From an uncultured Bacteroidales bacterium (lineage in GTDB: Bacteria > Bacteroidota > Bacteroidia > Bacteroidales > UBA4417), in contig CAIRMR010000153.1 of the NCBI GenBank assembly GCA_903879715.1, positions 3,026 to 67,025 on the forward strand: a stretch of DNA of 64,000 bases, read 5' to 3'. A program made the translations under genes and the position numbers. The first letter of the stretch is position 1. Each line of letters opens with the position of its first letter. The notes beneath the pieces are model-generated. The model was not told where the DNA came from. It did no database searches and saw only the letters and a program-made list of their open reading frames with translations. This document shows, piece by piece, positions 14,281 through 54,953 of this stretch.

Positions 14281-14412
14281 AATTTTAAGACCCAGGTCTC
14301 AAATTCAAAGTCTCAAATTCCAAAATCCAAAATCCAGATACTAAACTCCAAAATGTCTTATAGTAAAAGTCTTGGGAATTGAAATTTGGGTTTTGGGTCT
14401 TGGGTCTTTCAA
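14281..14412. repeat. CCAAAAT-type short-period hairpin repeat (family B, copy 2)
   Basis: ...aagacccaggtctcaaattcaaagtctcaaattccaaaatccaaaatcc... faces ...cttgggaattgaaatttgggttttgggtcttgggtc. It has 7-nt periodicity and opens with the same aagaccca motif as copy 1. Confidence 0.75.
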
Positions 14413-26446: not shown

Positions 26447-27823
26447 ATGGAATTACCTTTTGCAGAACCATACAGGATAAAAATGGTGGAGTCCATCCGC
26501 TGTAGTACACGCGAAGAGCGCGGACAATGGATAAAAGAAGCCGGTTACAATTTATTCAATCTCCGCAGCGACCAGGTTTTTATCGACCTTCTTACCGATT
26601 CGGGCACCGGGGCCATGAGCGATAAACAATGGAGCGAAATGATGCTGGGCGACGAAAGTTATGCCGGCGCTTCATCCTATTATAAATTAAAATCAGCGAT
26701 AAAGGATTTGCTGGGTTTTGATCATTTCCTCCCAACACACCAGGGACGCGCCGCCGAAAATGTGCTTTTCAGCGTGCTGGTTAAAGAAGGAAATGTGGTT
26801 CCCGGAAATTCGCATTTTGATACCACCAAAGGCCATATTGAATTCCGCAAGGCCGAAGCCATTGATTGTACAATCGGCGAGGCTTTTGATACTACTATCG
26901 ATCATCCGTTTAAAGGAAACCTTGACCTGGGAAAACTGGAAGATGTTCTGAAAAAATATCCCCGCGAACAGGTTCCTATGATCATTGTTACCATTACCTG
27001 CAATTCATCGGGCGGACAGCCGGTTTCACTGGCTAACATCAAAGGTGTAAGGCAACTTGCTGATAAATACAATATCCCGGTAATTTTCGACTCAGCCCGC
27101 TTTGCCGAAAATGCTTATTTTATCAAAACACGTGAAGCCGGACAGCAGGATCGCAGTATCCGGGAAATTGTAGCTGAAATGTTTTCTTATGCCGATGGCA
27201 TGACCATGAGCAGCAAGAAAGACGCTATTGTAAATATTGGCGGATTTATTGCTTTGCGCGATCCTGAACTTTTCAGGCAGGCATCGGTATTCAATATTAT
27301 GTTTGAGGGATTTTTAACCTATGGCGGGCTCGCCGGCCGCGACCTGAATGCCATTGCACAAGGTTTGTACGAAGGCACCGAATTCGATTACCTGAAATCA
27401 AGAATTAACCAGGTTGGAATGCTGGGTCAGAAAATGACTGGTTTTGGAGTCCCAGTGCAGATGCCGTATGGCGGACATGCAATTTTTGTTAATGCCAACG
27501 AAGTACTCTCCCACATCCCCAGGGAACAATTCAGGGCACAGACTTTAGCCGTTGAATTGTATATAGAAGCAGGTGTCAGAGGTGTTGAAATCGGTGCAAT
27601 AATGGCCGACCGCGATCCTGTTACCCGCGAAAACCGCTATCCCGAACTTGAATTGCTGAGGCTTGCCATTCCACGCAGAACCTATACTAACGATCATATG
27701 AATTATGTGGCTGTTGCCATGGGCAATGTGTACGAACGCCGCCACCAGATCACTACCGGCCTGGTAATCGTTGAAGAAGCACCAATTCTCAGGCATTTTA
27801 CGGTGAAGTTGAGGAAGATCTGA
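26447..27823 (+). CDS. tnaA: Tryptophanase-type PLP-dependent beta-eliminating lyase (tryptophanase; tyrosine phenol-lyase not excluded)
   Basis: 458 aa: MELPFAEPYRIKMVE...DLLTDSGTGAMSDKQW...PTHQGRAAENVLF... with the PLP-lysine block MSSKKDAIVNIGGF. Confidence 0.85.
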   Translation: MELPFAEPYRIKMVESIRCSTREERGQWIKEAGYNLFNLRSDQVFIDLLTDSGTGAMSDKQWSEMMLGDESYAGASSYYKLKSAIKDLLGFDHFLPTHQGRAAENVLFSVLVKEGNVVPGNSHFDTTKGHIEFRKAEAIDCTIGEAFDTTIDHPFKGNLDLGKLEDVLKKYPREQVPMIIVTITCNSSGGQPVSLANIKGVRQLADKYNIPVIFDSARFAENAYFIKTREAGQQDRSIREIVAEMFSYADGMTMSSKKDAIVNIGGFIALRDPELFRQASVFNIMFEGFLTYGGLAGRDLNAIAQGLYEGTEFDYLKSRINQVGMLGQKMTGFGVPVQMPYGGHAIFVNANEVLSHIPREQFRAQTLAVELYIEAGVRGVEIGAIMADRDPVTRENRYPELELLRLAIPRRTYTNDHMNYVAVAMGNVYERRHQITTGLVIVEEAPILRHFTVKLRKI

Positions 27824-27838
27824 TTTTAGAAATTAAAG

Positions 27839-27947
27839 GAGGTACAATTTACGAGGTACGATTTACGAGGTACGATTTACGAGGTACGATTTACGAGGTA
27901 CGATTTACGAGGTACGAATGACGAGGTACGAATGACGAAGTACGATT
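27839..27947. repeat. CGTA heptad tandem repeat (family A, copy 1)
   Basis: Alternating 7-nt units GGTACGA/TTTACGA (later AATGACG variants), about 15 units, starting 16 nt after the tnaA stop. Confidence 0.9.
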
Positions 27948-28195
27948 GGAGAATTCCTTCAATCTGCTTCGTTTTTTTATTTCTAAATTTCTCAGAATTT
28001 ATATAGCATTAAATACGAATGTTAAGTGTTCTGGTTATTTTTTAAAGTTCATGCCGCAAAAAAGGTAATACCTTCTCCATAATGCCGTCAGATATTATAC
28101 TACAAATTGAGTATTTTTTTTTGAAATTTATGCGTATATATTTGATTGATATAATAAGCCAAATTCGAATACTAACTTTTTAAAAAGAATCTGTC

Positions 28196-31100
28196 ATGAA
28201 GAATTTTACAACTCTGATATTCTTATTAGCCAGTTTGGTTAGTAGTGCTCAAACTAATGAGCAGGAGCCTAACAATTCATTCGGTACAGCCAATTACATT
28301 TTAAAAGATATTGGCACAACGGGGAATATTTCCCAGGTTGGTGATTACGATTATTTTGTGGCCTACCAGCCAGTTGACGGCACTTTAAAAATTTACATTT
28401 CTGCTACCAATACTGGTGCTTCCAACAGTTATTGCTATTTAACCTTATATGCAGGCAACAAATTCCCTATAGACCAACGATACCTTGGGGAAAAAACCAG
28501 TGTTGTTCCCGGTGCTACTGTTTACGATACAATAACACTTTATGGCCACGGAGCTGATTCCGTTTTCTTCAGGTTTGAAGCAGGAGGCACATTTTCTTAT
28601 AATTTTAAATACGAATTCAATGAAACAAAGAATAATGATATTGAGCCAAATGGCAGTTTTGCATCGGCTATTCCCATCAATCAGAACGAAAACAAGTCTG
28701 GACACATCGGATATGTTATAAATGGAATTGTTGATAATTATGACTATTACCGAACCAAAACGTCCGACGACGGCACTTTAAAAATTTACGTTTCTGCCAC
28801 CAATACTGGTGCTACAAGTAGTTATTGCTATTTAACTCTCTATGCCGGCAACAAGTCAATTATTAACCAACGATATATTTCCGGAGCTACCAGTGTTGTT
28901 TCTGGTGCCAGTGTTTATGATACAATTACACTTTATGGCCACGGTGTGGATTCAGTTTTCTTCAGGTTCGAGGCAAACGGTACATTTTCGTATAATTTAT
29001 ACTACGAATTTAATGAAACAAAGAATAATGATGTAGAGCCCAACGGCAGTTTTGCATCGGCTATTCCAATCAAACAGAACGAAAACAAGTCTGGACACAT
29101 CGGATATGTTTTATTAAATGGAATTGTTGATAATTTAGACTATTACCGCACCAAAACGTCCGACGACGGCACTTTAAAAATCTACATTTCTGCTACCAAT
29201 ACAGGTGCTTCCAGCAGATATTGCTATTTAACTTTATATGCCGGCAATAAAACATTTATAGACGGGCGATATATTTCCGGTGCAACCAATATTGTTTCCG
29301 GTGCTACTGTTTATGATACAATTACTCTCCGTGGCCGCGGAGTGGATTCAGTTTTCTTCAGGTTCGAGACAAATGGTACATTTTCGTATGATTTTAAATA
29401 TAACATAGAAGATATAAGTGTAAATGATATTGAACCCAACAATACTCTGGAAACTGCAATAAAAACTGATTTTAAACAAACTAAAAACGGGCACCTGATG
29501 TATAATGCAAATGGAGCCCTGGACTATACTGATTACTATATAATACCTTCATCTTTCAAAGGAAATATAAATATAATAGTCGAATTGACCAATAAAAGCG
29601 GAAAGCCTAATTATGTTTATTTGTATGGATATGATCAATCCCAAACACAGATATTTGCGCAATATGTAAAAAAGATTGCAAATTTACCCAATGACCAACT
29701 CATTCGGGATACCCTTGTTTTGAATTGTGCCGTTTTAGATGTTTTCTATCTCAGGTGGACAGCCGGAGGCCTCACTAATTACAAGTTCTCAGTTGAGTTG
29801 GTCGATCACCAGCCACATGCCAGCATGACACATGAAAGACTTGGGAATGCTGTAGGTTTCAGGCCTCAATTGGCGAATGCGGATAAATTCATGTGGGATT
29901 TTGGCGATGGTACAACAAGCACTCAAAAATACCCGATGAAAACATATAAGCCAGGATATTTTACAGCTCAGCTTATTGCAACAAACACCCAATGCAATCT
30001 AAAAGACACCGCACAGACTGCATTTGAAATAGAGGGAGTGGAATATTTTACTCCCGATTCATCCGGAGTTGGAGGCGATGCCATTGTTAAAATATTTGGT
30101 GGCGGCCTCGACACAAATACAAAAATCAGGTTAAATATGGGCGCTATTGAACTTACTCCCATTCATTTGGAAATGTTTAAAAACAATGTTCAGCTCAATG
30201 CCATTTTTGATTTTCACCTGGCCGAAGAAGGCACGTATGATGTCACCATCGAAATAAAAGGCCAGACACCAATTGTTTACCCAGGAGGGTTCAAACTTAC
30301 AGCATTCAAATATCCTTATACCTGGTCCGAAATTGTTTCCCCGTCCCGGATGAGGACCAATCTGAATACCAATATGAAACTGGTGGTTGGAAACAAAGGT
30401 AATGTAATGGCTTCGGGTGTTTTGGTTTGTGTTATATGGCCCAAGTCGGTGGATTTAATATTCGATACCAAATGGTTCAAGCCACCGGCCAGTGGCAATT
30501 ATACAATAACCGCAGCCGATACTACCTTTAATTTTAAATGGGAGGATATTCAGCCTTTATTCAGCGAGACCTTCAATTCCGTTACAGCAATAGATACATT
30601 TAATTTAGAACCGTATGACGGGTTTATGAGGTTAATTCTGATTCCAAAAATTGGTGCAGGAAGTACGGTTGAAATTCCGTTGATTGTTAAAACCACTTCA
30701 ACAGGAGCAAAAGACTTTATTACCTATACATTCAAGCCCAACCTTTTCGGGTCTGGTGAAACAGGAAGCTGGATGGATGTTTCCGAAAATTTGGCAGTTG
30801 AAAGCTGCGATTTATTGGATAAAGTTGTGGGAGGGGTTCCAGTATTAGATAAATCGCCAGTTAAATGGCTTGTTAAAGCCGTTAAAGGTACCACAAAACA
30901 CATGGCAAATTTAGGTCAGGTAATGGGCGCAACTTACAACTATCTTGATGGAACAACCAATAGCATTTACGAATCACTGGAGCCAGCTGATTTTAATGCA
31001 AGTTGCGATGCTGGAGATGTGCAACTTTATGGAGCTTTAGCGGATGTTAGTGTAGATTTCGTATGGAAAAAAGCTGGTAATAATTTCATGAAAGGCCAAA

Positions 31101-32473
31101 CTGACGATTTAAATAAGTTTATTGCAACCAACAGGCATACCGCAACAGCAGCTACAATTGAGTTTGCTATAGAAAATCTGAATAACGCTAACGATGTTAG
31201 AAAATATATTCAAAATGCTCACAAACTTTATAAAGCCGGTAAGGACCTGAAAACATTATACTCGAAAGTGAAAAGACTGGAAGAACTGGTAAAAGAATAC
31301 CCCGAATTAGAGCCGCAGTATGATGTGTTAAAGCAAGAGATGAATAAAGATATGATGATTCGCGATCCTAAATATACTAAAATCAATTCCGTAACCTCGT
31401 TGGACCCAAATGAAATTATCGGCCCGGTTGGTCAGGGGGCAAAACAGTTTGTGTTAAAGCAGGAAAGACAGCAATTTACAATCACCTTCGAAAATAAAGA
31501 CGTTGCCCTTGCTGCTGCACAAATTGTTACTGTGTCAGATACATTGGATGCCACCAGATTTGACCTGAACACCTTTGAATTTACCGATTTTACCATTGCC
31601 AATAAAACTTATACCGTGCCCAAGGGCCGACAGGAGTTTGTGTTGCAGGATAGCCTTTCACAGGTTATGAAGGTGCGTATTAACGGAAGTCTGGAAAAAA
31701 GCACAGGCATAGTTTCGTGGCAGTTCACCGCTATTGATCCTGCCACGGGCGATATACCGGTTTTTGAAGGATTTTTGCCACCCAACAAGAACATCCCCGA
31801 AGGTGAAGGTTCGGTATCATTTACCATACTGCCAAAACAAACCTTAGCTGATGGAGTGGTTATTAAAAACCGCGCTTCTATCATTTTTGATCAGAACGAA
31901 CCGATACTTACCAATACATGGCAGAATATCGTGGATGCTTTGCCTCCGGCAAGCACTGTTATGGCAACCCGGGTTGAGGGGAGTCCTGAAATTCATCTTG
32001 CATTTACCGGCAGCGACGCTTCGTCGGGCATCGCAAATTACGATATTTACATCCGGGAAGAAGGAGGCGAATGGCAGGCATTCGGAAATGCTTTCAGTGA
32101 CACAGAAACCATCCTGGCTGACTCGTCCAAACAGTATAGCTTTTATGTATTGGCAAATGACCTGGTAGGTAATAGAGAATTAAAAACCCCTGGTGCCGAA
32201 ACCACAGTCGGAATTAAGGAACTTTTAAAAGGGAAGGGGCAATTGAGCCTGTGGCCAACCCCGGCTGCTGATGCAGTTTTTATTGGTGGGCTTAAGCAAA
32301 GCAGTACTTTTATTATCAGCGACCTTTCAGGTAAAAAAATTATGTCAGGCATTGTTTCCGAAACCAACAACAGTATTGAGATTAACAAACTTGCCGTTGG
32401 TATATATATGCTCAGAGTTTATTCCGGCGGTTGTTTTGAATCACTAAAATTGCTTAAAAACCAGGGCAGATAA
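28196..32473 (+). CDS. Large T9SS-secreted surface protein: 4 tandem PPC-like repeats, PKD domain, unknown central region, T9SS CTD
   Basis: 1425 aa with a signal peptide. There are four units of about 131-133 aa, each opening with EPN(N/G)(S/T)...A (pre-peptidase C-terminal-like). It also has a PKD-like FMWDFGDGTTSTQKY, a DPNEIIGP...FLPPNKNIPEGEGSVSF module, and a terminal T9SS CTD (LSLWPTPAADAVFI...GIYMLRVYSGG...LLKNQ). Confidence 0.9.
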   Translation: MKNFTTLIFLLASLVSSAQTNEQEPNNSFGTANYILKDIGTTGNISQVGDYDYFVAYQPVDGTLKIYISATNTGASNSYCYLTLYAGNKFPIDQRYLGEKTSVVPGATVYDTITLYGHGADSVFFRFEAGGTFSYNFKYEFNETKNNDIEPNGSFASAIPINQNENKSGHIGYVINGIVDNYDYYRTKTSDDGTLKIYVSATNTGATSSYCYLTLYAGNKSIINQRYISGATSVVSGASVYDTITLYGHGVDSVFFRFEANGTFSYNLYYEFNETKNNDVEPNGSFASAIPIKQNENKSGHIGYVLLNGIVDNLDYYRTKTSDDGTLKIYISATNTGASSRYCYLTLYAGNKTFIDGRYISGATNIVSGATVYDTITLRGRGVDSVFFRFETNGTFSYDFKYNIEDISVNDIEPNNTLETAIKTDFKQTKNGHLMYNANGALDYTDYYIIPSSFKGNINIIVELTNKSGKPNYVYLYGYDQSQTQIFAQYVKKIANLPNDQLIRDTLVLNCAVLDVFYLRWTAGGLTNYKFSVELVDHQPHASMTHERLGNAVGFRPQLANADKFMWDFGDGTTSTQKYPMKTYKPGYFTAQLIATNTQCNLKDTAQTAFEIEGVEYFTPDSSGVGGDAIVKIFGGGLDTNTKIRLNMGAIELTPIHLEMFKNNVQLNAIFDFHLAEEGTYDVTIEIKGQTPIVYPGGFKLTAFKYPYTWSEIVSPSRMRTNLNTNMKLVVGNKGNVMASGVLVCVIWPKSVDLIFDTKWFKPPASGNYTITAADTTFNFKWEDIQPLFSETFNSVTAIDTFNLEPYDGFMRLILIPKIGAGSTVEIPLIVKTTSTGAKDFITYTFKPNLFGSGETGSWMDVSENLAVESCDLLDKVVGGVPVLDKSPVKWLVKAVKGTTKHMANLGQVMGATYNYLDGTTNSIYESLEPADFNASCDAGDVQLYGALADVSVDFVWKKAGNNFMKGQTDDLNKFIATNRHTATAATIEFAIENLNNANDVRKYIQNAHKLYKAGKDLKTLYSKVKRLEELVKEYPELEPQYDVLKQEMNKDMMIRDPKYTKINSVTSLDPNEIIGPVGQGAKQFVLKQERQQFTITFENKDVALAAAQIVTVSDTLDATRFDLNTFEFTDFTIANKTYTVPKGRQEFVLQDSLSQVMKVRINGSLEKSTGIVSWQFTAIDPATGDIPVFEGFLPPNKNIPEGEGSVSFTILPKQTLADGVVIKNRASIIFDQNEPILTNTWQNIVDALPPASTVMATRVEGSPEIHLAFTGSDASSGIANYDIYIREEGGEWQAFGNAFSDTETILADSSKQYSFYVLANDLVGNRELKTPGAETTVGIKELLKGKGQLSLWPTPAADAVFIGGLKQSSTFIISDLSGKKIMSGIVSETNNSIEINKLAVGIYMLRVYSGGCFESLKLLKNQGR
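28253..29420 (+). repeat. In-frame tandem DNA repeats (about 393-400 nt units) encoding the PPC-like modules
   Basis: aataatgatattgagccaaatggcagttttgcatcggctattcc... at 28631 recurs nearly verbatim at 29024. Units 1 and 4 are more diverged. Confidence 0.85.
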
Positions 32474-32542
32474 AAGGATATGCCATAACATATCCTGACA
32501 GATGCACTATTTCAGGTAAAATAGATGTATTTTTGTTAGGAT

Positions 32543-34483
32543 ATGGGGCTAAAAAGTATTCTGACAGCATTTGTGCTTGTGTATGCCATCTCTTTATGTG
32601 GCAGCATCAGCTACGCCCAGACAGATACCCTGGAAACTTTGAAAAAAACCTTATTACTTACTCAAAATGTGAAATCCAGGCAGGACGTATTATTGCAGAT
32701 ATGTGCGCAAAATCATTCATTCCCTCCGGACACTTTTCATAAATACATTCAAATGGGGTTGGCAATTTCTTCAGCGAATAGCCAGGAATATCTGAAGTTT
32801 CTGCGGTTTGAAGCTTCATATTTAAATAAATCAGGGCGAAATGATGCAGCCATTCATTTGACTGACAGTATTTTAAACTTATCTGTTGCCATGCAAAATA
32901 TCCAGCTGTTTCAAAGATTGCGAATTGAAAAATGTAAGGCATTGATAAGAATCGGTAAGTCAAAAGAGTCTATTGCAAATCTGTTTGATATGCTTGAAAA
33001 AGCTGAAACAATGAATGACACAACAACTGCTCTAGCGGCTTTTTCCATGTTGGGATGGGCCAATATGGAGTTGGGAAAGTATGAAGAAGCAATAAAATGG
33101 CTGGAAAAAGGGAAGAATTATACCAGCGTACAAGCCTATTTTATACAGAATCCCGCTCTTTATGTCAACTTGGGCTCCTGTTACAATAATGTTTTCAATT
33201 ATGACAAAGCGCTGGTGATTATAAATCAGGGATTGGAGCAGGCAAGGAAAGGAGAAAACTTAACTATAACAGCCAATGCTTTAAATATCAGGGCTGATAT
33301 TTACATTAACGTGAAGAAAAATGAGGAAGCACAGCGCGATCTGGAAGAGTCTTTGAACATCAGGGAGCAAATAGGGGATGCGTATTATATGCTTTCGGAT
33401 ATGGCTCAGTTGGCGTTGTTTTATGCAACTTCCAACCAATGCCCTAAAGGTATTGCACTGGCTAACAAAGGCATAGCGAAAGCAAAGGAAGGAAATCATC
33501 TTTCTAAAATTATTTATCTTTATGAGGCTTTGGCCGAAAATTATAAACACTGTAATCAAAGCATCGAATATGCTGCAACGCTTTCCACACTTCTGATTCT
33601 GAAAGATTCATTATACCGTGACAATACAGCGAAAGCATTAGCCGAGCTGGAAGGAAAATATGAATATCAGAAGAACCAAAATATCATTATACAGCAACAA
33701 AACCGCATTCTCCGAAACAGATATTCTGCTTATGGATTGGGATTGTTACTACTTGTAACTATAGTCGTATTTGCATTTGCTTATAGAAATTTCAAACGAA
33801 CCCAGAAACGAAAATTGGCAGTACTTACATTGGAGCAAACTAAACTGGCTGAGGAAGCAGTGCAAAAAGCAGAGGAAAATGAGAGAAAAAGAATAGCTGC
33901 TGACCTGCATGATAACCTGGGAACTCACGTTGCAGCTATCTGTTCAGGGGTAAAGTATTTTAAAGATGGAAATATTGATCAAGCTGAGGTTTTGGCGCAA
34001 CTAGATACCAATGCCACCGAAATTATGAATCACCTGAACGATACAATATGGGTATTAAAAAACGAAAAACTACTTTTTATTAACCTGGCGGATCGTTTTA
34101 AGTTATGGATACAGCGTGTAATGAAAAACTACCCCCACATAAAATATTTCATAACGGAAAATATAAATGAGGATATTGCATTAACTCCCATTAAAATTCT
34201 GCATTTGTTTTTAATGATGAAAGAGGCCCTGAACAATGCATTGAAGCATAGTGAATGTTCTGAGATAAGAATTCATTTTCAATGCACTGACAGCAATGAA
34301 TGGCAGGTTAGTATTACTGACAATGGAGTGGGATTTGATGTGGACAATCCAATGGAAGGAAACGGAATCGGGAATTTGAAACTCAGGGCAAAAGCAAGCA
34401 ACTTTAAAGTAATCTGGAACCGGATGGAACCTTCCGGAACTGAGATTTTATTTAAAAGTAAAAATTCGGAACAAGTGTTGTAA
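32543..34483 (+). CDS. TPR-repeat sensor histidine kinase (HisKA_3/NarX-LiaS type)
   Basis: 646 aa: signal/anchor, TPR-like repeats, a TM helix (GLGLLLLVTIVVFAFAY), H-box ERKRIAADLHDNLG, and an HATPase region (NNALKHS..., DNGVGF, GNGIGNL). Confidence 0.85.
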   Translation: MGLKSILTAFVLVYAISLCGSISYAQTDTLETLKKTLLLTQNVKSRQDVLLQICAQNHSFPPDTFHKYIQMGLAISSANSQEYLKFLRFEASYLNKSGRNDAAIHLTDSILNLSVAMQNIQLFQRLRIEKCKALIRIGKSKESIANLFDMLEKAETMNDTTTALAAFSMLGWANMELGKYEEAIKWLEKGKNYTSVQAYFIQNPALYVNLGSCYNNVFNYDKALVIINQGLEQARKGENLTITANALNIRADIYINVKKNEEAQRDLEESLNIREQIGDAYYMLSDMAQLALFYATSNQCPKGIALANKGIAKAKEGNHLSKIIYLYEALAENYKHCNQSIEYAATLSTLLILKDSLYRDNTAKALAELEGKYEYQKNQNIIIQQQNRILRNRYSAYGLGLLLLVTIVVFAFAYRNFKRTQKRKLAVLTLEQTKLAEEAVQKAEENERKRIAADLHDNLGTHVAAICSGVKYFKDGNIDQAEVLAQLDTNATEIMNHLNDTIWVLKNEKLLFINLADRFKLWIQRVMKNYPHIKYFITENINEDIALTPIKILHLFLMMKEALNNALKHSECSEIRIHFQCTDSNEWQVSITDNGVGFDVDNPMEGNGIGNLKLRAKASNFKVIWNRMEPSGTEILFKSKNSEQVL

Positions 34484-35197
34484 ATGATAAACACTTTAAG
34501 ATTTAAAACGGTGGAAAGTGAAGTAAAACATATCAGAATCGGGTTGGTAGAAGACAATTCTGTGAATCAGCGGAATTTTGTGCAAAACATCAAATTGTTT
34601 CCTGATTTGAAACTAGCGATACTGGCTTCTTCGGGGGAAGAATATCTGGATAAAATTAAAAGCATGCCTGCTAACTTATTGCCGGCGGTCGTGTTTATGG
34701 ATATTCAGATGGCGGGAATGAATGGTATTGAGACTATCAAATTAGCAAAGGCACACAGCAACGCCATTTATTATATTGTTTTAACTGTATTTGAAGATGA
34801 AGATTACATTTTTGAAGCCATAAAAGCCGGAGCTATTGGATATTTATTAAAACATGCAAATTTCGCATCTGTTTATGATGCAATAACCGAAGTTTTGGAA
34901 TACGGGGGAGCGCCTATGAGCCCGGCCATTGCGCGTAAAGCATTGAGGATGTTAAATAAACAACAGGTTGAAGTCAATGAAAAGGATAAAATACTAAACC
35001 TGCTGACCGACAGGGAGCGGGAAGTTTTACAAAACCTCGTAAATGGTTATGATGCCAAGCGAATAGCTGAGATTTTGGATGTAAATACCCTTACTATCCG
35101 AAAACATATCGCAAATATTTATACCAAACTGCACGTTAACTCCAAGGCACAGGTGATTTCGTTAGCGTATCAGAATAAGTGGATAAATAAAGCCTGA
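34484..35197 (+). CDS. NarL/LuxR-family response regulator
   Basis: 237 aa: receiver (VFMDIQMAGMNG, phospho-Asp context) plus a C-terminal LuxR HTH (LTDREREVLQNLVNGYDAKRIAEILDVNTLTIRKHIANIYTKL). The start ATG overlaps the kinase stop (TAAATG). Confidence 0.9.
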   Translation: MINTLRFKTVESEVKHIRIGLVEDNSVNQRNFVQNIKLFPDLKLAILASSGEEYLDKIKSMPANLLPAVVFMDIQMAGMNGIETIKLAKAHSNAIYYIVLTVFEDEDYIFEAIKAGAIGYLLKHANFASVYDAITEVLEYGGAPMSPAIARKALRMLNKQQVEVNEKDKILNLLTDREREVLQNLVNGYDAKRIAEILDVNTLTIRKHIANIYTKLHVNSKAQVISLAYQNKWINKA

Positions 35198-35232
35198 ATA
35201 AATTGGAATCTCTCTTTTGCATTCAATAACTT

Positions 35233-35438
35233 AAGGTACGACTTACGAATGACGATTTACGAATTTGCATGGTAATCGTACTTGGTCAGTCGTACCTTTT
35301 TATTTGCGATTTACGATTTACGAATGTTTCCTGCAATCGTACCTCGTACCTCGTCAATCGCACCTTTTTATTTACGATTTATGAATAACGATTTACGAAT
35401 GTTTCCTGCAATCGTACCTCGTCAATCGTACCTTTTTT
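35233..35438. repeat. CGTA-heptad hairpin elements (family A, copy 2), about 3 hairpin units each ending in a T-run
   Basis: aaggtacgac...gtcgtacctt is a perfect 10-bp inverted repeat. It is followed by two units, gcgatttacgatttacga-atgtttcctgca-atcgtacctcgt..., each followed by acctttttt. Lies between convergent genes. Confidence 0.85.
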
Positions 35439-35457
35439 AAATCAAATACTATAAACC

Positions 35458-36342
35458 CTAGCGCCCTGCTGGCGGAGTCTCCGTCTTTGATTTAATCGGA
35501 ATAATCCCACCCATTTCGCCCATCACATTTACCAGGTCAGAACCGGTTGGAACAACGATTTTCGAATTATCTTTTAAAGAGGTTTCCATAGCCTGTATTC
35601 TGCGCAGCATCTGGGCATTCCCTACGAAATATTTCTCCGCGGCTTCGTTTACCAGCTGAATGGCCTGGGCTTCACCCTCGGCACGAAGAATAGCGCCCTG
35701 CTTGATACCTTCGGCACGACGGATTTCGGCACGTTTTTCGCCATCAGCTTTGGTTTCGGTGGCAGTGGCGTAGTCGATAGCAGCTATTTTTTCATTTTCG
35801 GCCTTCACAATTTTATTCATGGTTTCCTGCACATCTTTCGGCGGATCAATCTCCTTGAGCTCCGTGCGTACAATTTCAATTCCCCAGTTCGCGGTTTCTT
35901 CGAGCAGTGTGCCATGCAGTTCCTTATTGATTTTTCCACGCTCGCTATTGGCCGATTTCAACGTCATGGTACCAATAATATTACGCAAGGTAGTGCGGGC
36001 CAGGTTTACGATCTGGTATTCGATGCTGTTTACATTGTACTGCGAGTTTTTAACGCTTTCCTCATCCTCTTTGATCTTGAAATAAACCTGCGCATCAACA
36101 CTGGCATTCAGGTTGTCGTTCGTGATGATCTCCTGGGGTTCGGCATTCACCATTTTTTCAGTGATGTTGATCTTATACATCTTATCAATGAAAGGAATAA
36201 TCCAGTTAAAACCCGGAGGTGCAAAATGATGGTACTTGCCAAGCCGCTCAATCAGGGCACGGTTTGTAGGTCGGATAATACGGATTCCTGCAAAGAAAAA
36301 CAGGAGCAGAACAGCAATGATGATAGTTAACAGATTTCCCAT
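35458..36342 (-). CDS. SPFH/Band-7 (stomatin/HflK-C-like) membrane protein
   Basis: ORF 35458..36402; the likely start is the ATG at 36342 (MGNLLTIIIAVLLLFFF...). It has SPFH-core motifs and a C-terminal Ala/Glu-rich coiled coil. Confidence 0.85.
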   Translation of the reverse strand: MGNLLTIIIAVLLLFFFAGIRIIRPTNRALIERLGKYHHFAPPGFNWIIPFIDKMYKINITEKMVNAEPQEIITNDNLNASVDAQVYFKIKEDEESVKNSQYNVNSIEYQIVNLARTTLRNIIGTMTLKSANSERGKINKELHGTLLEETANWGIEIVRTELKEIDPPKDVQETMNKIVKAENEKIAAIDYATATETKADGEKRAEIRRAEGIKQGAILRAEGEAQAIQLVNEAAEKYFVGNAQMLRRIQAMETSLKDNSKIVVPTGSDLVNVMGEMGGIIPIKSKTETPPAGR

Positions 36343-36502
36343 AAGTGTAATTTTTAAAATTAAATTAAGATAATTGAATGATAAGATTTTCTCTTCGTAC
36401 AAATATAAATCCTTTATATGTGTGATTCACTGATTTTTCAAAATAATTTAAGAAGTCTTAAATGCTATTCACTAAAGTAGACTTGGGTGACGTGCTTCTT
36501 AA

Positions 36503-36845
36503 TGTACGATGTACGATGTACGAATTGTCTATGCTAACGTCAATCGTACCTCGTCAATCGCACCTTTTTGTTCTACGATTTACGAATTCTCCCGGCAATC
36601 GTCAATCGTACCTCGTCAATCGTACCTTTTTGTTCTACGATGTACGAATTCTCCCGGCAATCGTCAATCGTACCTTGTCAATCGTACCTTTTTGTTCTAC
36701 GATTTACGAATTCTCCCGGCAATCGTCAATCGTACCTCGTCAATCGTACCTTTTTGTTCTACGATTTACGAATTCTCCCGGCAATCGTCAATCGTACCTC
36801 GTCAATCGTACTTCATCAATTGTCAATCGTACCTTTTTGTTTTAC
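36503..36845. repeat. Tandem array of a 62-bp hairpin unit built from CGTA heptads (family A, copy 3), about 5.5 units
   Basis: The unit is tttttgttctacgatttacgaattctcccggcaatcgtcaatcgtacctcgtcaatcgtacc. The tttttg landmark falls at 36565, 36627, 36689 and 36751 (period 62) and at 36834 (an expanded last unit). tacgatttacga pairs with tcgtcaatcgta around a 12-nt loop. Confidence 0.9.
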
Positions 36846-36907
36846 ATATTTCAAATTCTTAAATAATTCTTTACCTTCGCATTTCTGAAATTTCAAATCC
36901 TTATTAT

Positions 36908-38167
36908 ATGAAAAACATTGATACTTACGATTTTACCGGTAAACGTGCCCTGATCAGGGTTGATTTTAACGTTCCACTCGACGACAATCAGAAAATTACC
37001 GACGCAACTCGTATTGACGCCGCTTTGCCAACCATCCGCAAAATACTGGCCAGCGGTGGTTCAACCATACTCTGTTCGCACTTAGGCAGACCTAAAAAAA
37101 TCGGTGAGCCAAAACTTTCACTTCGTCACCTTGTTCCCTACCTGGAGAAAGTGTTGAACACTACTGTAAAATTTGCCGATGATTGCATGGGCCAATCCGC
37201 TGTTGATCTTTCGGCTACATTGAAACCCGGCGAAGTGCTGTTGCTCGAAAACCTCCGTTATTACGAGGAAGAAGAAGGAAAAGCACGTTTACCGGAAACA
37301 GCAGCCGACGAAGAAAAAGCCGCCGCAAAAGTTCGCGTTAAGGCAGCACAGAAAGAATTTACCCAAAAACTTGCCGGTTACGCTGATTGTTACGTAAACG
37401 ACGCTTACGGCACGGCTCATCGCGCTCATGCTTCAACCGCTTTGGTTGCAGCTTATTTCCCTAACGATAAAATGTTTGGCTACCTGATGAATAACGAGGT
37501 AAGCAACATTACCAAAGTTTTACATGAGGCCCAGCATCCATTTACTGCTGTTTTAGGAGGAGCAAAGGTTTCCAGCAAAATTGAAATTATCAACAACCTT
37601 TTAAGCAAAGTCGATAACCTGATAATTGGCGGTGGAATGATGTTCACCTTTATTAAAGCTAAAGGCGGAAAAATTGGCGGATCGCTGGTTGAACCTGATT
37701 ATATTGAGCTGGCAAAAAATATTATGGCAGGTGCCGAAAAACTTGGTGTTAAAATCCTGATTCCATCAGATGCCGTTATTGCCAACGCTTTTGCCGACGA
37801 TGCCGAACGTAAGGTTTGCAAATCGGATGAAATTCCTGATGGCTGGCTTGGCATGGACATAGGTCCGGATACCATAAAACATTTCAGCGAGGTGCTTGTT
37901 GGTTCGAAAACCATTCTCTGGAACGGACCAATGGGCGTTTTCGAAATGTGCAACTTCCAGAAAGGGACCAAAGATATTGCCCTGGCCATTGTTGAGTCTA
38001 CAGCTAAAGGCGGATTTTCACTGGTAGGCGGTGGCGATTCGGTTGCTGCCGTAAATAAATTCCATCTTGCGGATAAAGTAAGCTACGTTTCCACCGGTGG
38101 TGGAGCTATGCTCGAATCTATTGAAGGAAAAGTGCTGCCGGGAGTTAAAGCAATTTTAGAAGATTAA
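36908..38167 (+). CDS. pgk: Phosphoglycerate kinase
   Basis: 419 aa: [15 protein letters not shown], and C-terminal GGGDS...STGGGA motifs. Confidence 0.95.
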
Positions 38168-38214
38168 TTTTAATAATCAGGATTTGATTATTCTGATATT
38201 CTCAAGCTAATATA

Positions 38215-38258
38215 GAAACCGCAGATATGATGAAATTCTTCATCTGGTCCGCGGTTTC
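38215..38258. terminator. Bidirectional hairpin between convergent pgk and cvpA
   Basis: gaaaccgc (38215-38222) pairs with gcggtttc (38251-38258). An inner gatgaa-attc-ttcatc stem sits between them. Confidence 0.5.
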
Positions 38259-38294
38259 TGCTATAATCCATTTCGGGATCAAATTTGTTTAAAA

Positions 38295-38810
38295 TTATTT
38301 CTTCTTTATCATCTCCTCAACCTGTACCGTATATTTCTGCACCAGCGGAATTACAGCAGGAGCTACAGCCGCAACCGGTTTATATAATACAGATCCTTTT
38401 TTGTGCGTGGCCGTGAAAAGGCTTTCGTGGGGATCAATACGAGCGAATAATAAAAAAAGGAAACTTGCTATCAACAGTCCTTTTGCAATGCCAAATAGTG
38501 CACCGGCCAAACGGTTCACAATTCCCAGCCCGACGGTTTTTACAACACCTGTCATAAAACGGCCCAGCAGAAAAATAAGAACGACCACAATTACAAATGT
38601 AACAATATAGGCTATCAACTTAATGTTGCCGCTTTTCAGGCCCATATCATGTTGCAGCCAGTTAGCGGTAAATTCCGAGAAATGCGCAGCTGCATAAAAG
38701 CCAAGTATCAATCCTGCCAGGGTTGCAATACTGATAATAAAACCGTTGGTAAAACCTTTAAAAGCAAAGTAAAACAGGAAAATGGCAAGGATGATATCGA
38801 GTGTTGACAT
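38295..38810 (-). CDS. cvpA: CvpA family membrane protein
   Basis: 171 aa: MSTLDIILAIFLFYFAFKGFTNGFI... and four TM helices typical of CvpA. Confidence 0.8.
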   Translation of the reverse strand: MSTLDIILAIFLFYFAFKGFTNGFIISIATLAGLILGFYAAAHFSEFTANWLQHDMGLKSGNIKLIAYIVTFVIVVVLIFLLGRFMTGVVKTVGLGIVNRLAGALFGIAKGLLIASFLFLLFARIDPHESLFTATHKKGSVLYKPVAAVAPAVIPLVQKYTVQVEEMIKKK

Positions 38811-38884
38811 GCAGTTTATTTCGAAATGAATTTTTCATAAAAAGAATACAATTGATACGAAATTTAGGAAAAAAAATTGCCTGA

Positions 38885-39072
38885 TTTCTAATTTAAAGTC
38901 CCAAGTCTCAAAATACAAGACCCAAATCCCAAGCCCCGATTAGAATGAAATAGTTTATCCTTTAAAGATCTCAATCCCTCAAAGTCCTCGTCCAACAACA
39001 ATTGAATGACAACCGAATGACAACTGCCTTTCAGGAATCCCAACCCCGAACTTGAATCCCAAACACCCAACT
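38885..39072. repeat. CA-rich CCCAA/CCAAAAT-type low-complexity repeat (family B, copy 3, one-armed)
   Basis: aaagtcccaagtctcaaaatacaagacccaaatcccaagcccc ... ggaatcccaaccccgaacttgaatcccaaacacccaactcctaaccccc. It shares the aagacccaaat and ctcaaa motifs with copies 1 and 2, but no complementary GT arm is present. Confidence 0.6.
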
Positions 39073-39073
39073 C

Positions 39074-39838
39074 CTAACCCCCAACACCTTTCACCGGCCT
39101 TAATCTTTTAGTCAGTTCCGAAGTAAACACAAATGCCTGGAGTTCCGGGTTTTCGGTATACAAAATATTGTTTTTAGTTCCTTCCCACCACAATTTGCCC
39201 TGGTACAGGAAGTAGATTTTCTCGCCGATTTCAAGCACCGAATTCATGTCGTGAGTTACCACAACGGTAGTCATATTATACTCGATGGTAATTTCCTTGA
39301 TCAGTTCATCAATAAGGTGGGCGGTTTGTGGATCGAGGCCCGAATTAGGCTCATCACAAAACAGGTATCGCGGGTTCATGGAGATGGCACGGGCAATGGC
39401 GACGCGCTTTTTCATACCACCGCTAAGTTCCGATGGGTAAAGTTTGTTGACATTCTGCAGGTTCACCCTCGAAAGGCAGAAGTTTGCCCGCTCAAGTTTT
39501 TCCTGGGGTGATTGTTTTGTAAACATGGTAAGCGGAAACATAACATTTTCCTCAACGGTAAGTGAATCGAACAGAGCGCCTCCCTGGAAAAGCATCCCGA
39601 TCTCTTGCCGGATTTCTTTCATCTCGTTGAACGACATTTTCGAAAACTCCCTGTCATCGTAAAACACTTTGCCATGATCAAATTCCAGCAAGCCAACAAG
39701 GCATTTGAGCAAAACAGTTTTCCCCATTCCGCTCTGGCCGATAATCAGGTTAGTCTGCCCTTTTTCCATGGTGACTGAAACATCTTCGAGCACCAGCCGC
39801 TCGCCAAAACTCTTACTGATATTTTTACCCTCTATCAT
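39074..39838 (-). CDS. mlaF: ABC transporter ATP-binding protein (MlaF-like)
   Basis: Walker A GQSGMGKT, signature LSGGMKKRV, Walker B LFCDEP. Overlaps the upstream permease gene by 4 nt. Confidence 0.85.
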   Translation of the reverse strand: MIEGKNISKSFGERLVLEDVSVTMEKGQTNLIIGQSGMGKTVLLKCLVGLLEFDHGKVFYDDREFSKMSFNEMKEIRQEIGMLFQGGALFDSLTVEENVMFPLTMFTKQSPQEKLERANFCLSRVNLQNVNKLYPSELSGGMKKRVAIARAISMNPRYLFCDEPNSGLDPQTAHLIDELIKEITIEYNMTTVVVTHDMNSVLEIGEKIYFLYQGKLWWEGTKNNILYTENPELQAFVFTSELTKRLRPVKGVGG

Positions 39839-40584
39839 GCCAGCAGGATTTGAGTGAGGATGAGGTTCATAAAGATGATGGCAATACTGCTGTATACGAC
39901 GCCATTGGTACTTGCTTCGCCAACTTCGAGCGCTCCGCCTTTGGTATAATATCCATTATAGGCTGAAACAGAAGCAATAATAAACGCAAAGACAACGGTT
40001 TTCGTTAAAGCATAGAAAATATCATACAAATGAAAAAAGGATTGAATGCCATAAATATATTCAGCAGATGGGAAAAGTCCTGTAAAAATCCCTGCAAGCC
40101 ATCCACCGCCTACTGCAAGTAACATGCTCATCATGATCAGGAAAGGATTAATAATCATGGACGCTACTATTTTAGGCAGAATGAGGAACGTAGCGGGATT
40201 GATACCCATGATTTCGAGGGCGTCGATTTGTTCGGTAACGCGCATGGTTCCTATTTCCGAGGCAATTCTTGACCCAACCTTACCGGCAAGGATGAGGCTG
40301 ATGATAGTAGGAGCAAACTCAAGTTCCACACTTTGCCTGGTCACAAAACCGATGGTGTAGGATGGAATCAGCGGAGTATCAATGTTAAACGCCATCTGAA
40401 TGGCAAGCACAGCACCCATGAATACCGAAATAATAGCAACAATACCAACGGAAGCCAGGCCGAGATTTTCCATCTCTACCATAATCTGCCGGAAGTAAAT
40501 TGACTGCTTTTCAGGACGTTGAAATGCCAGCCGTAATAAACTCAAGTAGCGTCCAAAGTGGAATAAAAATTTCATTTCATACAA
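39835..40584 (-). CDS. mlaE: MlaE-family ABC permease
   Basis: 249 aa: ...LILAGKVGSRIASEIGTMRVTEQIDALEIMGINP..., the typical MlaE/Ttg2B block. Confidence 0.85.
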   Translation of the reverse strand: MYEMKFLFHFGRYLSLLRLAFQRPEKQSIYFRQIMVEMENLGLASVGIVAIISVFMGAVLAIQMAFNIDTPLIPSYTIGFVTRQSVELEFAPTIISLILAGKVGSRIASEIGTMRVTEQIDALEIMGINPATFLILPKIVASMIINPFLIMMSMLLAVGGGWLAGIFTGLFPSAEYIYGIQSFFHLYDIFYALTKTVVFAFIIASVSAYNGYYTKGGALEVGEASTNGVVYSSIAIIFMNLILTQILLA

Positions 40585-40718
40585 TAATAAGTGCTAAATT
40601 AGCGTAAATTTCAGGACTGGCATCTTCACCTGGATTATTTTCTGAACAAGCAGAAGAAATAATTGTTAAAATTTAGGTTAAAAAGCCGCAAAAAAACCTT
40701 AGAATCAGACAACTAAAT

Positions 40719-40949
40719 ATGATAAAGAATATACCTTCAAAAATTGGAATGCGTCAAATCTTATTTTTGGCTTCATTCGTCTTCTTTTTGATATTTTCAG
40801 GCTGTGCCGGCAGTCAGAATTCACATAGCGGCAAACACCGCAAACCTGTTTCAACCGGTAAACGTAAATGCGGATGTAGTTTGTTGACACCCGATTCAAA
40901 ACACACCATTAAATTGTATCAGTCGACTTATTATGTCCTACAAGCCTGA
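40719..40949 (+). CDS. Possible small basic lipoprotein (hypothetical)
   Basis: 76 aa with lipobox LIFSGCAGSQ. Overlaps the next gene by 17 nt. No recognisable family, so it may not be expressed. Confidence 0.3.
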   Translation: MIKNIPSKIGMRQILFLASFVFFLIFSGCAGSQNSHSGKHRKPVSTGKRKCGCSLLTPDSKHTIKLYQSTYYVLQA

Positions 40950-41547
40950 AACACTGGATGGTGTTCTATCCCGGTTTCCTGAGCAGGCCAGGTTGCTTAC
41001 ACAGCCTTTATTTGATGAACATCGCTTTCTTTTCCGTATAACAGCGCCACGCAAAACCAGGCTTGGGAGTTTTAAAGGCGTGCGTTTTGGTGCCCGGCCG
41101 GTAATCCAGATAAATTCCGACCTTGGTCAATACACGTTTCTGCTCGTTTTTCTGCATGAACTTGCTCACCTGGTTGTGACGAAAAAATTTGGACGCAAAG
41201 CAAAACCGCATGGTGCAGAGTGGAAAAATGCTTACCGAAACCTGGTTCAACCTTTCTTTAACGAACAGGTTTTTCCACCGGTTCTTACCGCTGAACTCCA
41301 CAGGTATTTCATTAAAACACCCGCCACTTTTCAACACGATACAAGGCTTATCAATACTCTTTCTTCCCTCGAGGGTGGATCACAAATGGTAACGGTTAAC
41401 GATATTCCTTTGAACAGTACTTTTACTTTGATGAGTGGCCGGCAGTTTGTGAAACTCGAAAAACTCCGCACCCGGTATAAATGCTTTTGCCCGAAAACCA
41501 AAAAGTATTACCTTGTTCCTAAGTCAGCGCAGGTGATGCAGGCTTGA
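40933..41547 (+). CDS. SprT-like zinc-metalloprotease-domain protein
   Basis: 204 aa with HExxH in FLHELAHLV, followed by ...HGAEW. Confidence 0.65.
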   Translation: MSYKPETLDGVLSRFPEQARLLTQPLFDEHRFLFRITAPRKTRLGSFKGVRFGARPVIQINSDLGQYTFLLVFLHELAHLVVTKKFGRKAKPHGAEWKNAYRNLVQPFFNEQVFPPVLTAELHRYFIKTPATFQHDTRLINTLSSLEGGSQMVTVNDIPLNSTFTLMSGRQFVKLEKLRTRYKCFCPKTKKYYLVPKSAQVMQA

Positions 41548-41554
41548 AGTGGAT

Positions 41555-41778
41555 TTGCGATTTCAGATTGACGATGTACGATTGGGGTAGACGAATCGTA
41601 AATCGTACTTCATGAATCGTTCCTTATAAATCGCAAATCGTACCTCGCAAATCGTAAATCGTACCTCGTAAATCGTACCTCGTAAATCGTACTTCGTACC
41701 TCGTACCTCGTAAATCGTACCTCGTACCTCGTAAATCGTAAATCGTACCTCGTAAATCGTACCTCGTAAATCCATATC
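41555..41778. repeat. CGTA heptad repeat (family A, copy 4): hairpin head plus about 20 tandem heptads
   Basis: gcgattt...aaatcgc and tacgatt...aatcgta are inverted pairs. From about 41630 onward the sequence is tcgcaaa tcgtacc tcgcaaa tcgtaaa tcgtacc tcgtaaa ... (units TCGTACC/TCGTAAA). Confidence 0.9.
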
Positions 41779-41907
41779 GTAAGAACAAAGCACCCTTTAG
41801 AATATTAATTCCCCCTTTAGTTAATCTGAAACCGGATTCATTACCTTTGCAAAAAATACATCCTTCAAATTATTGTAATCTAAATTGTTACATTAATATA
41901 TATCTTT

Positions 41908-42999
41908 ATGAACAAAGACTACTATTGTGTGATCATGGCTGGCGGAGTTGGAGCTCGCTTCTGGCCTTTGAGCCGTAACTCGCGACCTAAACAGTTTATT
42001 GATATACTGGGAACCGGCGAAACGCTGATCCAGCAAACGTTTAGAAGGCTAACCACGATTTGTCCGCCCGAAAATATATTTGTAGTAACCCACCAGCAGT
42101 ATTTCGATCAGGTTGTTGAGCAGTTACCCGCCATCGTTCCTGATCATGTGCTCTGCGAGCCAATGCGCCGAAATACGGCTCCGTGTATTGCCTATGCCAC
42201 TCATAAAATATATAAGTTGAACCCCAACGCCAGTATAGTTGTTGCTCCTTCGGATCATATCATTCTCAAAGAAGAGGTTTTTACCCAAACACTGCTTTGT
42301 GCCTTGAAGGCTGCTTCCCAAAATGATTGGCTGCTAACGCTTGGCATCACACCCAGCAGGCCAGATACCGGCTATGGATACATACAATTTGATGAAACAC
42401 ACTCCTATACTTCTGAATGCAAAGTACGGAAAGTAAAAACATTTACCGAGAAACCCAATCATGAACTGGCAGAATCGTTTCTGCAAAGCGGTGATTTCCT
42501 GTGGAATGCAGGTATTTTTATCTGGTCTGTTAAAAGTATTCTCGCCGCTTTCGAAAAACACCTTCCCGAGTTGGACAGCCTTTTTAAAGAAGGTGCCGAT
42601 TTATATTATACCGACGAAGAATCAACATATATCGAAAGTGCTTACACCATCTGTAAAAGCATTTCAATCGATTACGGTGTGATGGAGAAAGCTGATAATG
42701 TGTTTGTTCTGGCAGCTGATATCGGCTGGAGCGATTTAGGCACCTGGGGCTCTCTTTACGACACTTCGGCAAAAGATGCCGACGGAAACGCAATAACAGG
42801 TTCAAAACCGCTTACCTACGATACACATAACTGCATAATTAACCTGCCTCTGGACAAGGTTGCTGTAATTCAGGGTATTAACGATATGATAGTTGTCGAA
42901 GATAATGGCATACTGCTTATCTGCAAACGCGGCGACGAACAGAACATCCGCAGTTATGTTGACGCTGTCCGCAATGAAAAAGGTGAGCAGTACGTTTAA
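41908..42999 (+). CDS. manC: Mannose-1-phosphate guanylyltransferase
   Basis: 363 aa: IMAGGVGARFWPLSR N-terminal nucleotidyltransferase motif and family-typical length. Confidence 0.85.
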   Translation: MNKDYYCVIMAGGVGARFWPLSRNSRPKQFIDILGTGETLIQQTFRRLTTICPPENIFVVTHQQYFDQVVEQLPAIVPDHVLCEPMRRNTAPCIAYATHKIYKLNPNASIVVAPSDHIILKEEVFTQTLLCALKAASQNDWLLTLGITPSRPDTGYGYIQFDETHSYTSECKVRKVKTFTEKPNHELAESFLQSGDFLWNAGIFIWSVKSILAAFEKHLPELDSLFKEGADLYYTDEESTYIESAYTICKSISIDYGVMEKADNVFVLAADIGWSDLGTWGSLYDTSAKDADGNAITGSKPLTYDTHNCIINLPLDKVAVIQGINDMIVVEDNGILLICKRGDEQNIRSYVDAVRNEKGEQYV

Positions 43000-54596: not shown

Positions 54597-54953
54597 GAAA
54601 AAATTATTCATAAAATTCAAAAATATAGGCTGCGATCGTGAATATGAGAAACCTCTTTATTCTTCCTGCCATGAAAATTTGCCAACCATAAGTTTATTTT
54701 TATTAAACCATTTCGAAAAATCGGCCTTTACAATTCTTACAATGTCCGAAAGAGATTAAAAGGGACTCATTTCTAAAAACCTATGGACATGGTCTTTGTA
54801 CCCATTTACTGCCTGGGAAAATTGATTGGTATTGGTTAAAATTCATGAGATATATTTGAATAGCTCAGGACGCATTTTGGATGGCAATATATTTTCTCTT
54901 CCTTTAACTGCAAAAACAACGTGAGTGTTCAGGTGCGAGTAAATATTTGCCAT
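54558..54953 (-). pseudogene. RAYT / IS200-like Y1 (HUH) transposase pseudogene with three in-frame stop codons
   Basis: My minus-strand translation in ONE frame is MANIYSHLNTHVVFAVKGRENILPSKMRPELFKYIS*ILTNTNQFSQAVNGYKDHVHRFLEMSPF*SLSDIVRIVKADFSKWFNKNKLMVGKFSWQEE*RGFSYSRSQPIF... The stops are the complements of 54843-45 (TGA), 54756-58 (TAA) and 54657-59 (TAA). The HUH motif is HVH. The C-terminal Tyr/HH region is not recognisable. Confidence 0.75.

Follow-up and report, generated by a model that had tools for sequence, protein, structure and literature searches.

The CGTA loci and their genes

The window analyzed here is a 64-kb stretch of DNA from an uncultured Bacteroidales bacterium and lies within a 6.07-Mb draft assembly (G000; 40% GC, 223 contigs). 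Four of its intergenic spacers carry repeats built from related 7-nt units (heptads), here called the CGTA family. The flanking genes encode a tryptophanase-type lyase (tnaA), a type IX secretion system (T9SS)-sorted PKD protein, a TPR histidine kinase, and a LuxR-type response regulator, and then an SPFH protein, phosphoglycerate kinase (pgk), a SprT-like protein, and a nucleotidyl transferase (Pfam). The window tnaA is 88% identical to the tnaA of an uncultured Bacteroidales metagenome-assembled genome. The first locus (27839) begins 16 nt after the tnaA stop codon, the second (35233) lies 36 nt past the stop of the LuxR-type regulator and 20 nt from that of the convergent SPFH gene, the third (36503) occupies the divergent SPFH/pgk spacer, and the fourth (41555) begins 8 nt after the stop of the sprT-like gene. 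An earlier note, made from the sequence alone, had placed three loci within 40 nt of stop codons and one in a divergent region, and these distances were correct.

Three consecutive TCGTMMM units (at most one mismatch) were matched 43 times in the window, compared to none in 100 dinucleotide-preserving shuffles, and the four loci are present as the note described them. According to Tandem Repeats Finder (TRF), 27839-27947 consists of 7.8 copies of a 14-nt double unit, GAGGTACGATTTAC, or about 15.6 heptads. At 35233-35438, there are three hairpin units, each ending in T5-6 (TRF period of 75 nt, 2.1 copies, at 35276-35422). A 62-nt hairpin-plus-T-run unit is repeated 4.8 times at 36503-36845 (TRF span, 36512-36811), and at 41555-41778 about 25 heptads run on from a hairpin core (TRF periods of 14, 21, and 28 nt at 41596-41772). 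The note's count for the first long run, about 15 units, was right, whereas its figure of about 20 for the run at 41555-41778 was too low. The features are listed below (ΔG, folding free energy in kcal/mol).

27839 to 27947, + strand: expanded 5′ arm of about 15 heptads, GGTACGA/TTTACGA (the complement of TCGTACC/TCGTAAA), after the tnaA stop and upstream of the terminator-like hairpin; unstructured (fold z of +0.7); congeners have only 2 to 4 heptads here, as the 5′ arm of a hairpin.
27925 to 27985, + strand: hairpin plus T7, the present terminator-like structure of tnaA; the final heptads of the array serve as its 5′ arm, opposite a degenerate CGTA arm on the 3′ side; ΔG of −21, z of −4.9; in the terminator scan list.
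28196 to 35197, + strand: 7-kb gene block between two CGTA loci, with a 1,425-aa T9SS-sorted PKD protein, a TPR histidine kinase, and a LuxR-type response regulator (Pfam); not in this spacer in G014, G001, G005, and G003.
35233 to 35298, + strand: CGTA-heptad hairpin plus T5, orthologue of the putative ancestral terminator of the convergent tnaA/SPFH spacer by the identity of its loop, GAATTTGCnTGGTAATCGTACTT, as in G014; ΔG of −26.4, z of −5.8 (+ strand) and −5.5 (− strand).
35299 to 35440, + strand: two more tandem hairpin-plus-T-run units with a 75-nt period; ΔG of −19 (z of −5.2) and −14.5 (z of −3.3).
36503 to 36845, + strand: five tandem hairpin-plus-T-run units with a 62-nt period (TRF) between the divergent SPFH and pgk genes, a short way upstream of the TAccTTCG region, which is conserved and resembles a pgk promoter; single-unit fold, ΔG of −11.1, z of −2.0.
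41555 to 41640, + strand: hairpin core after the sprT-like gene, orthologue of a single (G015) or double (G008) CGTA hairpin plus T-run; ΔG of −25.5, z of −2.9.
41596 to 41772, + strand: expanded 3′ arm of about 25 heptads, TCGTAAA/TCGTACC, with a further heptad in place of the orthologues' T-run; unstructured (fold z of +1.8).

The covariance models of Rfam 15 gave no match at E values of up to 1 within 27000-42500. Three overlapping open reading frames (ORFs), one in each + frame, span 36462-36888. Coding potential of the arrays was ruled out: long ORFs across the repeats are artefacts, as the note had held, because neither 7 nor 62 nt is divisible by 3, no frame of the three is closed, and species differ in copy number.

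Orthologous spacers and change within the arrays

Comparison with genomes of the same genus showed that the window loci have simpler counterparts. First, at the tnaA 3′ end, 9 of 10 congeners carry one CGTA-heptad hairpin of the form AGGTACGA(TTTACGA)n-loop-(TCGTAAA)nTCGTACCT, followed directly by T4-6. In G014, G001, G005, and G003, tnaA is adjacent to and directly convergent with the SPFH gene, and because this hairpin has an A-rich 5′ flank as well as a T-run, it could terminate both genes. In G000, the hairpin at 35233-35298 shares its loop with that of G014 and is followed by two more hairpin units. On the tnaA side of G000, the 5′ arm has grown to 15 heptads and the 3′ arm is degenerate, and a hairpin of −21 kcal/mol with T7 is still formed. 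Since the expanded arm at 27839-27947 lies directly after the tnaA stop and upstream of this terminator-like hairpin, it is probably in the tnaA 3′ untranslated region.

Second, in the spacer after the sprT-like gene, G015 has a single CGTA hairpin with its T-run, and G008 has a pair of them. In G000, the hairpin core is kept, the 3′ arm has grown to about 25 heptads, and another heptad now stands where the T-run was (CGTACCTTTTAAATCC in G015 corresponds to CGTACCTCGTAAATCC in G000). Elsewhere, this spacer carries unrelated arrays: G014 has ATGTCGG together with an 8-mer, and G004 and G005 have still other units. Period-8 arrays (e.g., CTGAAACT) accompany the heptads in the G014 sprT spacer. 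The 12 orthologous hairpins (nine at tnaA and three at sprT) have ΔG values of −17 to −37 kcal/mol, and 11 of them have z values of −3.2 to −9.5; the exception is the G004 tnaA hairpin (z of −2.1). Third, in the SPFH/pgk spacer, the five tandem hairpin-plus-T-run units were found in G000 and G008 only; G015, G014, and G001 have no block, and G004 has four related heptads at that position.

The tnaA/SPFH spacer is also a recurrent insertion point at the CGTA hairpin. In G014, two near-identical hairpin copies of about 75 nt, including 14 unique nucleotides after the tnaA stop, surround an insert of about 290 nt that has terminal inverted repeats (CCTGACTTCTGACG...CGTCAGAAGTCAGG). In G015, two hairpins surround a 5.1-kb block of LuxR-type, ThiF, and PKD-like genes, in which Pfam detected no recombinase, and in G000 the 7-kb block lies between the expanded arm and the hairpin triplet.

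The same picture emerged when 15 array sites of G008 were mapped to G000. A heptad array was found in both species at 13 of the 15 sites, with different lengths (for example, 50 versus 277, 257 versus 76, 470 versus 77, and 125 versus 222 nt) and different dominant unit variants, and the variation in copy number that the note had expected of the heptad runs was thus seen between species. Within arrays, adjacent units differed at 2 to 5% of the TCGT core positions compared to 25 to 46% of positions 5 to 7, figures that are biased somewhat by the selection of arrays by their core; a second family, TTGG, likewise has a conserved 4-nt core and a variable 3-nt tail. Comparison of the orthologous spacers shows that the arrays change in place. 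That they are kept at orthologous sites with altered copy numbers and unit variants fits slippage or unequal exchange with homogenization in place and not repeated insertion.

Period-7 arrays across the genome and the order

The CGTA family occurs throughout G000. Of 24 genomes in the genus, 15 have it, whereas 16 other families of this order essentially lack it (reversed control, 0), which bears out the note's description of a dispersed family and shows it to be lineage specific. The wider excess of period-7 arrays escaped the note. TRF detected 956 arrays at period 7 in G000; the counts for periods 6 and 8 were 204 and 469, and secondary peaks appeared at 14 and 21. A stringent periodicity detector found 184 arrays at period 7 compared to 1 to 27 for periods 4 to 13. 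These arrays comprise 243 distinct heptad unit types, among which the CGTA type ranks fourth, and most of them are one-directional and without structure. The real anomaly is period 7 as such, and the CGTA family is one among many.

By periodicity-based detection, the CGTA family amounts to at least 71 arrays, about 600 units and about 4 kb, and a strict regular expression found 52 CGTA runs at about 30 loci in G000. All heptad arrays together make up at least 15.4 kb, or 0.25% of the 6.07 Mb. These totals are lower bounds because 23 of the 446 contig ends stop within heptad arrays. This is a modest load and not the very high one that the note had suggested from four loci in the window, where array density is about twice the genome average.

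Several trends were apparent in the placement of the arrays, judged against a crude longest-ORF set of gene calls. First, over 275 period-7 loci, 6% of the array bases were inside ORFs (94% outside), compared to 82% coding overall. Second, the arrays were depleted in divergent spacers, and in codirectional spacers they lay closer to the upstream stop (median, 47 nt) than to the downstream start (103 nt). Third, the sense strand in codirectional spacers was A-rich in 150 arrays versus 72 (background, 57%); a replication-strand test gave a weak A-T signal (59 of 87) that was confounded with gene orientation. The CGTA arrays showed no bias in orientation relative to genes.

In the sampled sequence of five congeners, there were 30 to 62 period-7 arrays per Mb, each genome having its own units. 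Outside the genus, one other family (G031) has such arrays, and none were found in the sampled sequence of G025 and G026. G002 and G011 have no CGTA or AAAATAG arrays but dozens of GATAAAA arrays. Period 8 is raised in G005, G002, and G031 (13 to 22 arrays per Mb), where such arrays likewise accompany the heptads.

Interpretation of the family

Our preferred reading, which we hold with moderate confidence, is that the CGTA loci belong, as members without a gene, to a family of foldback (hairpin) repeats specific to the genus, which are terminator-like at gene ends and change in place. Both arms of such a hairpin are made of 7-nt units in tandem, each with a conserved TCGT/ACGA core and three positions that vary, and a T-run comes after the 3′ arm. 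Because the arms are tandem repeats, they would change by slipped-strand mispairing or unequal exchange. One arm has expanded into a long unstructured run in G000 (27839-27947 and 41596-41772), and the whole hairpin-plus-T-run unit has been duplicated in tandem at 35233-35438 and 36503-36845. The hairpins after tnaA, which was ancestrally convergent with the SPFH gene, and after the sprT-like gene would act as intrinsic terminators. A stable stem-loop that leads straight into a U-run and lies downstream of a gene, in the orientation of that gene, is found at 35233-35298, at 27925-27985, and in the tnaA and sprT orthologues. From the position, the fold, and the conservation of these strong hairpins across species, a terminator function at the tnaA and sprT-like gene ends is likely; termination was among the roles that the note had considered possible.

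Several observations weigh against a general terminator role. First, CGTA hairpin-plus-T-run units occur at only five G000 loci, in mixed orientation, and are co-oriented with an upstream gene at only two; the other three lack the arrangement just described, as does the block upstream of pgk, whose five units terminate no annotated gene. Second, among hairpin-type loci of all heptad families, a T-run was present at 5 of 53 where a gene end reads in and at 10 of 41 otherwise. Third, only about 15% of the arrays have a complementary partner arm, compared to 4 to 6% in controls, and therefore the derivation of one-directional arrays from hairpin arms is shown at two loci only. Finally, the 62-nt unit folds weakly (z of −2.0). 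A general terminator role for all heptad hairpins was ruled out, since T-runs are rare and not enriched where genes end.

Hairpins of similar build that bear a gene carry, by Pfam match and arm alignment, a PF05635 gene (23S_rRNA_IVP, an Avd-like four-helix bundle). There are 13 PF05635 matches in G000 and 4 to 19 in congeners; among 16 genomes of other families, three had none and G026 had one weak match, with arrays checked in G025 and G026 only. In G000, 10 copies are credible, and 8 of these are bracketed by inverted arms that belong to the main heptad families of this genome. A first k-mer control for the arms was uninformative (40 versus 29) and was replaced by an inverted-arm alignment score compared to a random-small-gene null. 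Of 40 copies in nine congeners, 31 scored above the 95th percentile of this null and 24 above the 99th, and period 7 was the commonest in the flanking arms. The gene-bearing copies have no T-run. One whole gene-plus-arms element was found in G014 at a site where G000 has a 31-nt repeat-free spacer. CGTA-type units are present in the arms of gene-bearing copies in G022, G008, and G014. Given that PF05635 genes are bracketed by inverted heptad arms, a few of them with CGTA-type units, the window loci may be gene-less relatives or derivatives of these elements. Two points count against such a descent: these CGTA-type arms are short, and none of the G000 PF05635 genes examined had CGTA arms.

PF05635 genes with inverted heptad arms lie between cistrons in G000 at C154:37625-38041, C44:37652-38131, C7:10517-10900, and C61:4611-4970. 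The C44 element is orthologous in G000, G008, G014, and G001, and its arm units differ in each species.

A wider proposal, which we put forward only tentatively and consider somewhat doubtful, is that bacterial heptamer repeats, including the CGTA family, are the arms and worn remains of selfish hairpin elements whose complete members carry the Avd-like PF05635 gene. The hairpins would also be preferred insertion points, with the whole hairpin duplicated around the incoming DNA, a pattern observed around the 290-nt element with terminal inverted repeats in G014 and the 5- to 7-kb gene blocks in G015 and G000.

Alternatively, the arrays could be plain simple-sequence repeats, each arisen on the spot by a polymerase slippage that prefers 7 nt, with incidental hairpins and T-runs and no element identity or function. 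Polymerase slippage was proposed for heptanucleotide repeats by Mrazek et al. 2007, according to the summary given in PMC4679880. Period 7 is indeed favored whatever the unit, in 243 types; the sprT spacer carries unrelated arrays depending on the species (CGTA in G000, G008, and G015), and the CGTA arrays lack an orientation bias. However, independent origins leave unexplained why about 70 loci have the TCGT core in common, why variation is confined to three of the seven positions, and why complementary arm pairs are three times commoner than in controls. They also do not account for the hairpin plus T-run after tnaA in 9 of 10 species or for the inverted arms around PF05635 genes, and we regard this explanation as unlikely.

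Repetitive extragenic palindromic (REP) sequences, bacterial interspersed mosaic elements (BIMEs), and other palindromic extragenic repeats act as terminators or mRNA stabilizers. Like the CGTA family, REP/BIME sequences place a hairpin module at the 3′ ends of scattered genes, in some cases as tandem copies. The CGTA stems differ in being tandem heptads, and they therefore change by slippage; nor are they associated with REP-associated tyrosine transposases (RAYTs). The note had taken the family for REP-like sequences or for the miniature transposable elements with inverted repeats that are called MITEs, which would be copied to new intergenic sites, as REPs or REPINs or in a MITE-like manner, by a RAYT or other Y1 transposase. 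Consistent with this, the same hairpin module is found at unrelated loci, G000 and G008 have a filled SPFH/pgk spacer where that of G015, G014, and G001 is empty, there are many genes for Y1 transposases (G000 has 16 and G008 has 17), and complete hairpin copies flank the inserted DNA in G014 and G015. Yet none of nine Y1 genes was within 1 kb of any heptad locus, compared to 10.6% of random positions, and the RAYT/Y1 link was rejected; Y1 genes are equally present in G025, whose sampled sequence has no heptad arrays. As for MITE hallmarks, no terminal inverted repeats beyond the arms, target-site duplication, conserved termini, or linked or related transposase was found, filled and empty spacers being too diverged for base-exact junctions. 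Moreover, the 13 of 15 sites shared by G000 and G008 differ in copy number and not in presence, so that arrays persist at orthologous sites and change in place. We therefore consider transposase-driven copying improbable and the MITE label unsupported.

Equally improbable, in our estimate, is that the arrays are multivalent DNA or RNA binding sites through which a protein reading a 4-nt core every 7 nt (a cold-shock, S1-type, or PF05635 protein) regulates the neighboring genes: the conserved core and variable 3-nt tail of the CGTA, TTGG, and other families, the more frequent A-richness of the sense strand, and the binding proposed for TAACTGA heptamers (MacGregor 2015, PMC4679880) speak for it, but the two closest species differ freely in the number of copies and in the unit variant, a given site can hold different units in different species, the CGTA family has no orientation preference, the flanking genes have no evident common function, and the binding protein is only a candidate.

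The CGTA loci, which we prefer to read as gene-less foldback repeats, also resemble repeats from other bacteria. The cyanobacterial short tandemly repeated repetitive (STRR) sequences of Mazel et al. 1990 are reportedly tandem 7-nt, intergenic, and lineage specific and in this resemble the CGTA family. Heptanucleotide repeats are the commonest long simple-sequence repeats (LSSRs) in many bacteria (PMC4679880). As far as Mrazek et al. 2007 is summarized there, heptanucleotide LSSRs have, like the CGTA family, tandem 7-nt units, several families per genome, an almost exclusively intergenic and lineage-specific distribution, and fast change in copy number. The heptad arrays studied here share the features of LSSRs and STRRs, namely a period-7 excess, intergenic location, multiple unit types, and copy numbers that vary between close relatives. 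The CGTA family differs from both in that a subset forms T-run hairpins at gene 3′ ends conserved across a Bacteroidia genus, in its new TCGTnnn unit, and in its link to a gene-bearing hairpin element. It is a new example of a known but unexplained class of bacterial heptamer repeats.

Three further systems are close in one respect or another. In Xanthomonas, there are 70 to 75 convergent inverted pairs of GGGAATC arrays, biased to convergent spacers (Rehm et al. 2015, PMC4692102). These and the Nostoc GGGGAYT arrays are, like the CGTA family, intergenic heptamers with many convergent inverted pairs, more of them between convergent than divergent genes, and are kept at orthologous sites of different species with different lengths. 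Their units are G-rich and were studied as G-quadruplex formers, whereas CGTA units are not G-rich, and that paper does not discuss termination or an associated gene. The TAACTGA arrays of Beggiatoaceae, cyanobacteria, and five Bacteroidetes (MacGregor 2015, PMC4679880) are likewise intergenic direct heptamers, including long arrays in Bacteroidetes beside other heptamer repeats. Most of them are found a short way upstream of start codons, in a single orientation, and translational regulator sites were the role proposed for them, whereas CGTA arrays are nearer stops and without orientation bias. Finally, in Coxiella, the intervening sequence of the 23S rRNA combines a long stem that holds an S23p ORF with variable GACAGAT heptamers (Warrier et al. 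2016, PMC4990558). As in the PF05635 elements here, the small four-helix-bundle gene (S23p/PF05635) sits in the loop of a long inverted-repeat stem, beside direct heptameric repeats whose number varies between strains. In contrast to this rRNA sequence, the PF05635 elements here lie between protein-coding genes, and the four window loci are gene-less. In an incomplete literature search, no publication was found that connects PF05635 genes with heptamer repeats spread over a genome.

For decades, heptamer repeats have been on record from cyanobacteria, Xanthomonas, Beggiatoaceae, and some Bacteroidetes, and no account of their origin or function has been generally accepted. The genus studied here makes the problem tractable, since one hairpin can be traced from species to species, compact and terminator-like in some and with a runaway expansion of one arm in others, and the similar arms around a small conserved PF05635 gene suggest a candidate partner protein. 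On the practical side, the arrays interrupt short-read assemblies (the 23 contig ends) and give rise to spurious ORFs, and they might be used as markers for strain typing.

Other features of the window and genome were as follows. The TTGGnnn/nnnCCAA family forms hairpins in the window, two of which, neither assigned to a strand, are given here.

1860 to 1955: second heptad family hairpin, CCCAAAT... / ...TTTGGAT; ΔG of −26.7, z of −1.9.
14301 to 14408: second heptad family hairpin, AAATCCA / TTGGGTC; ΔG of −26.2, z of −2.7.

The same family is also present at 38916-38938. A Y1 transposase pseudogene with two in-frame stops lies at 54660-54938 (− strand), 12.9 kb from the nearest heptad locus. 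Outside the window, small GC-rich palindromic inserts were seen inside G000 heptad arrays at C185:32383-32603, C176:36154-36374, C57:14455-14766, and C77:19720-19913. Among them are CACTGAGCGnAGCCGAAGTG, CCCTTCGACTACGCTCAGGG, and an approximately 60-nt CACTTCGGCTTGCTTCGGGGGTTCGGCTCCGCTCACC...GCTCAGTG, and their presence or absence differs between G000 and G008.

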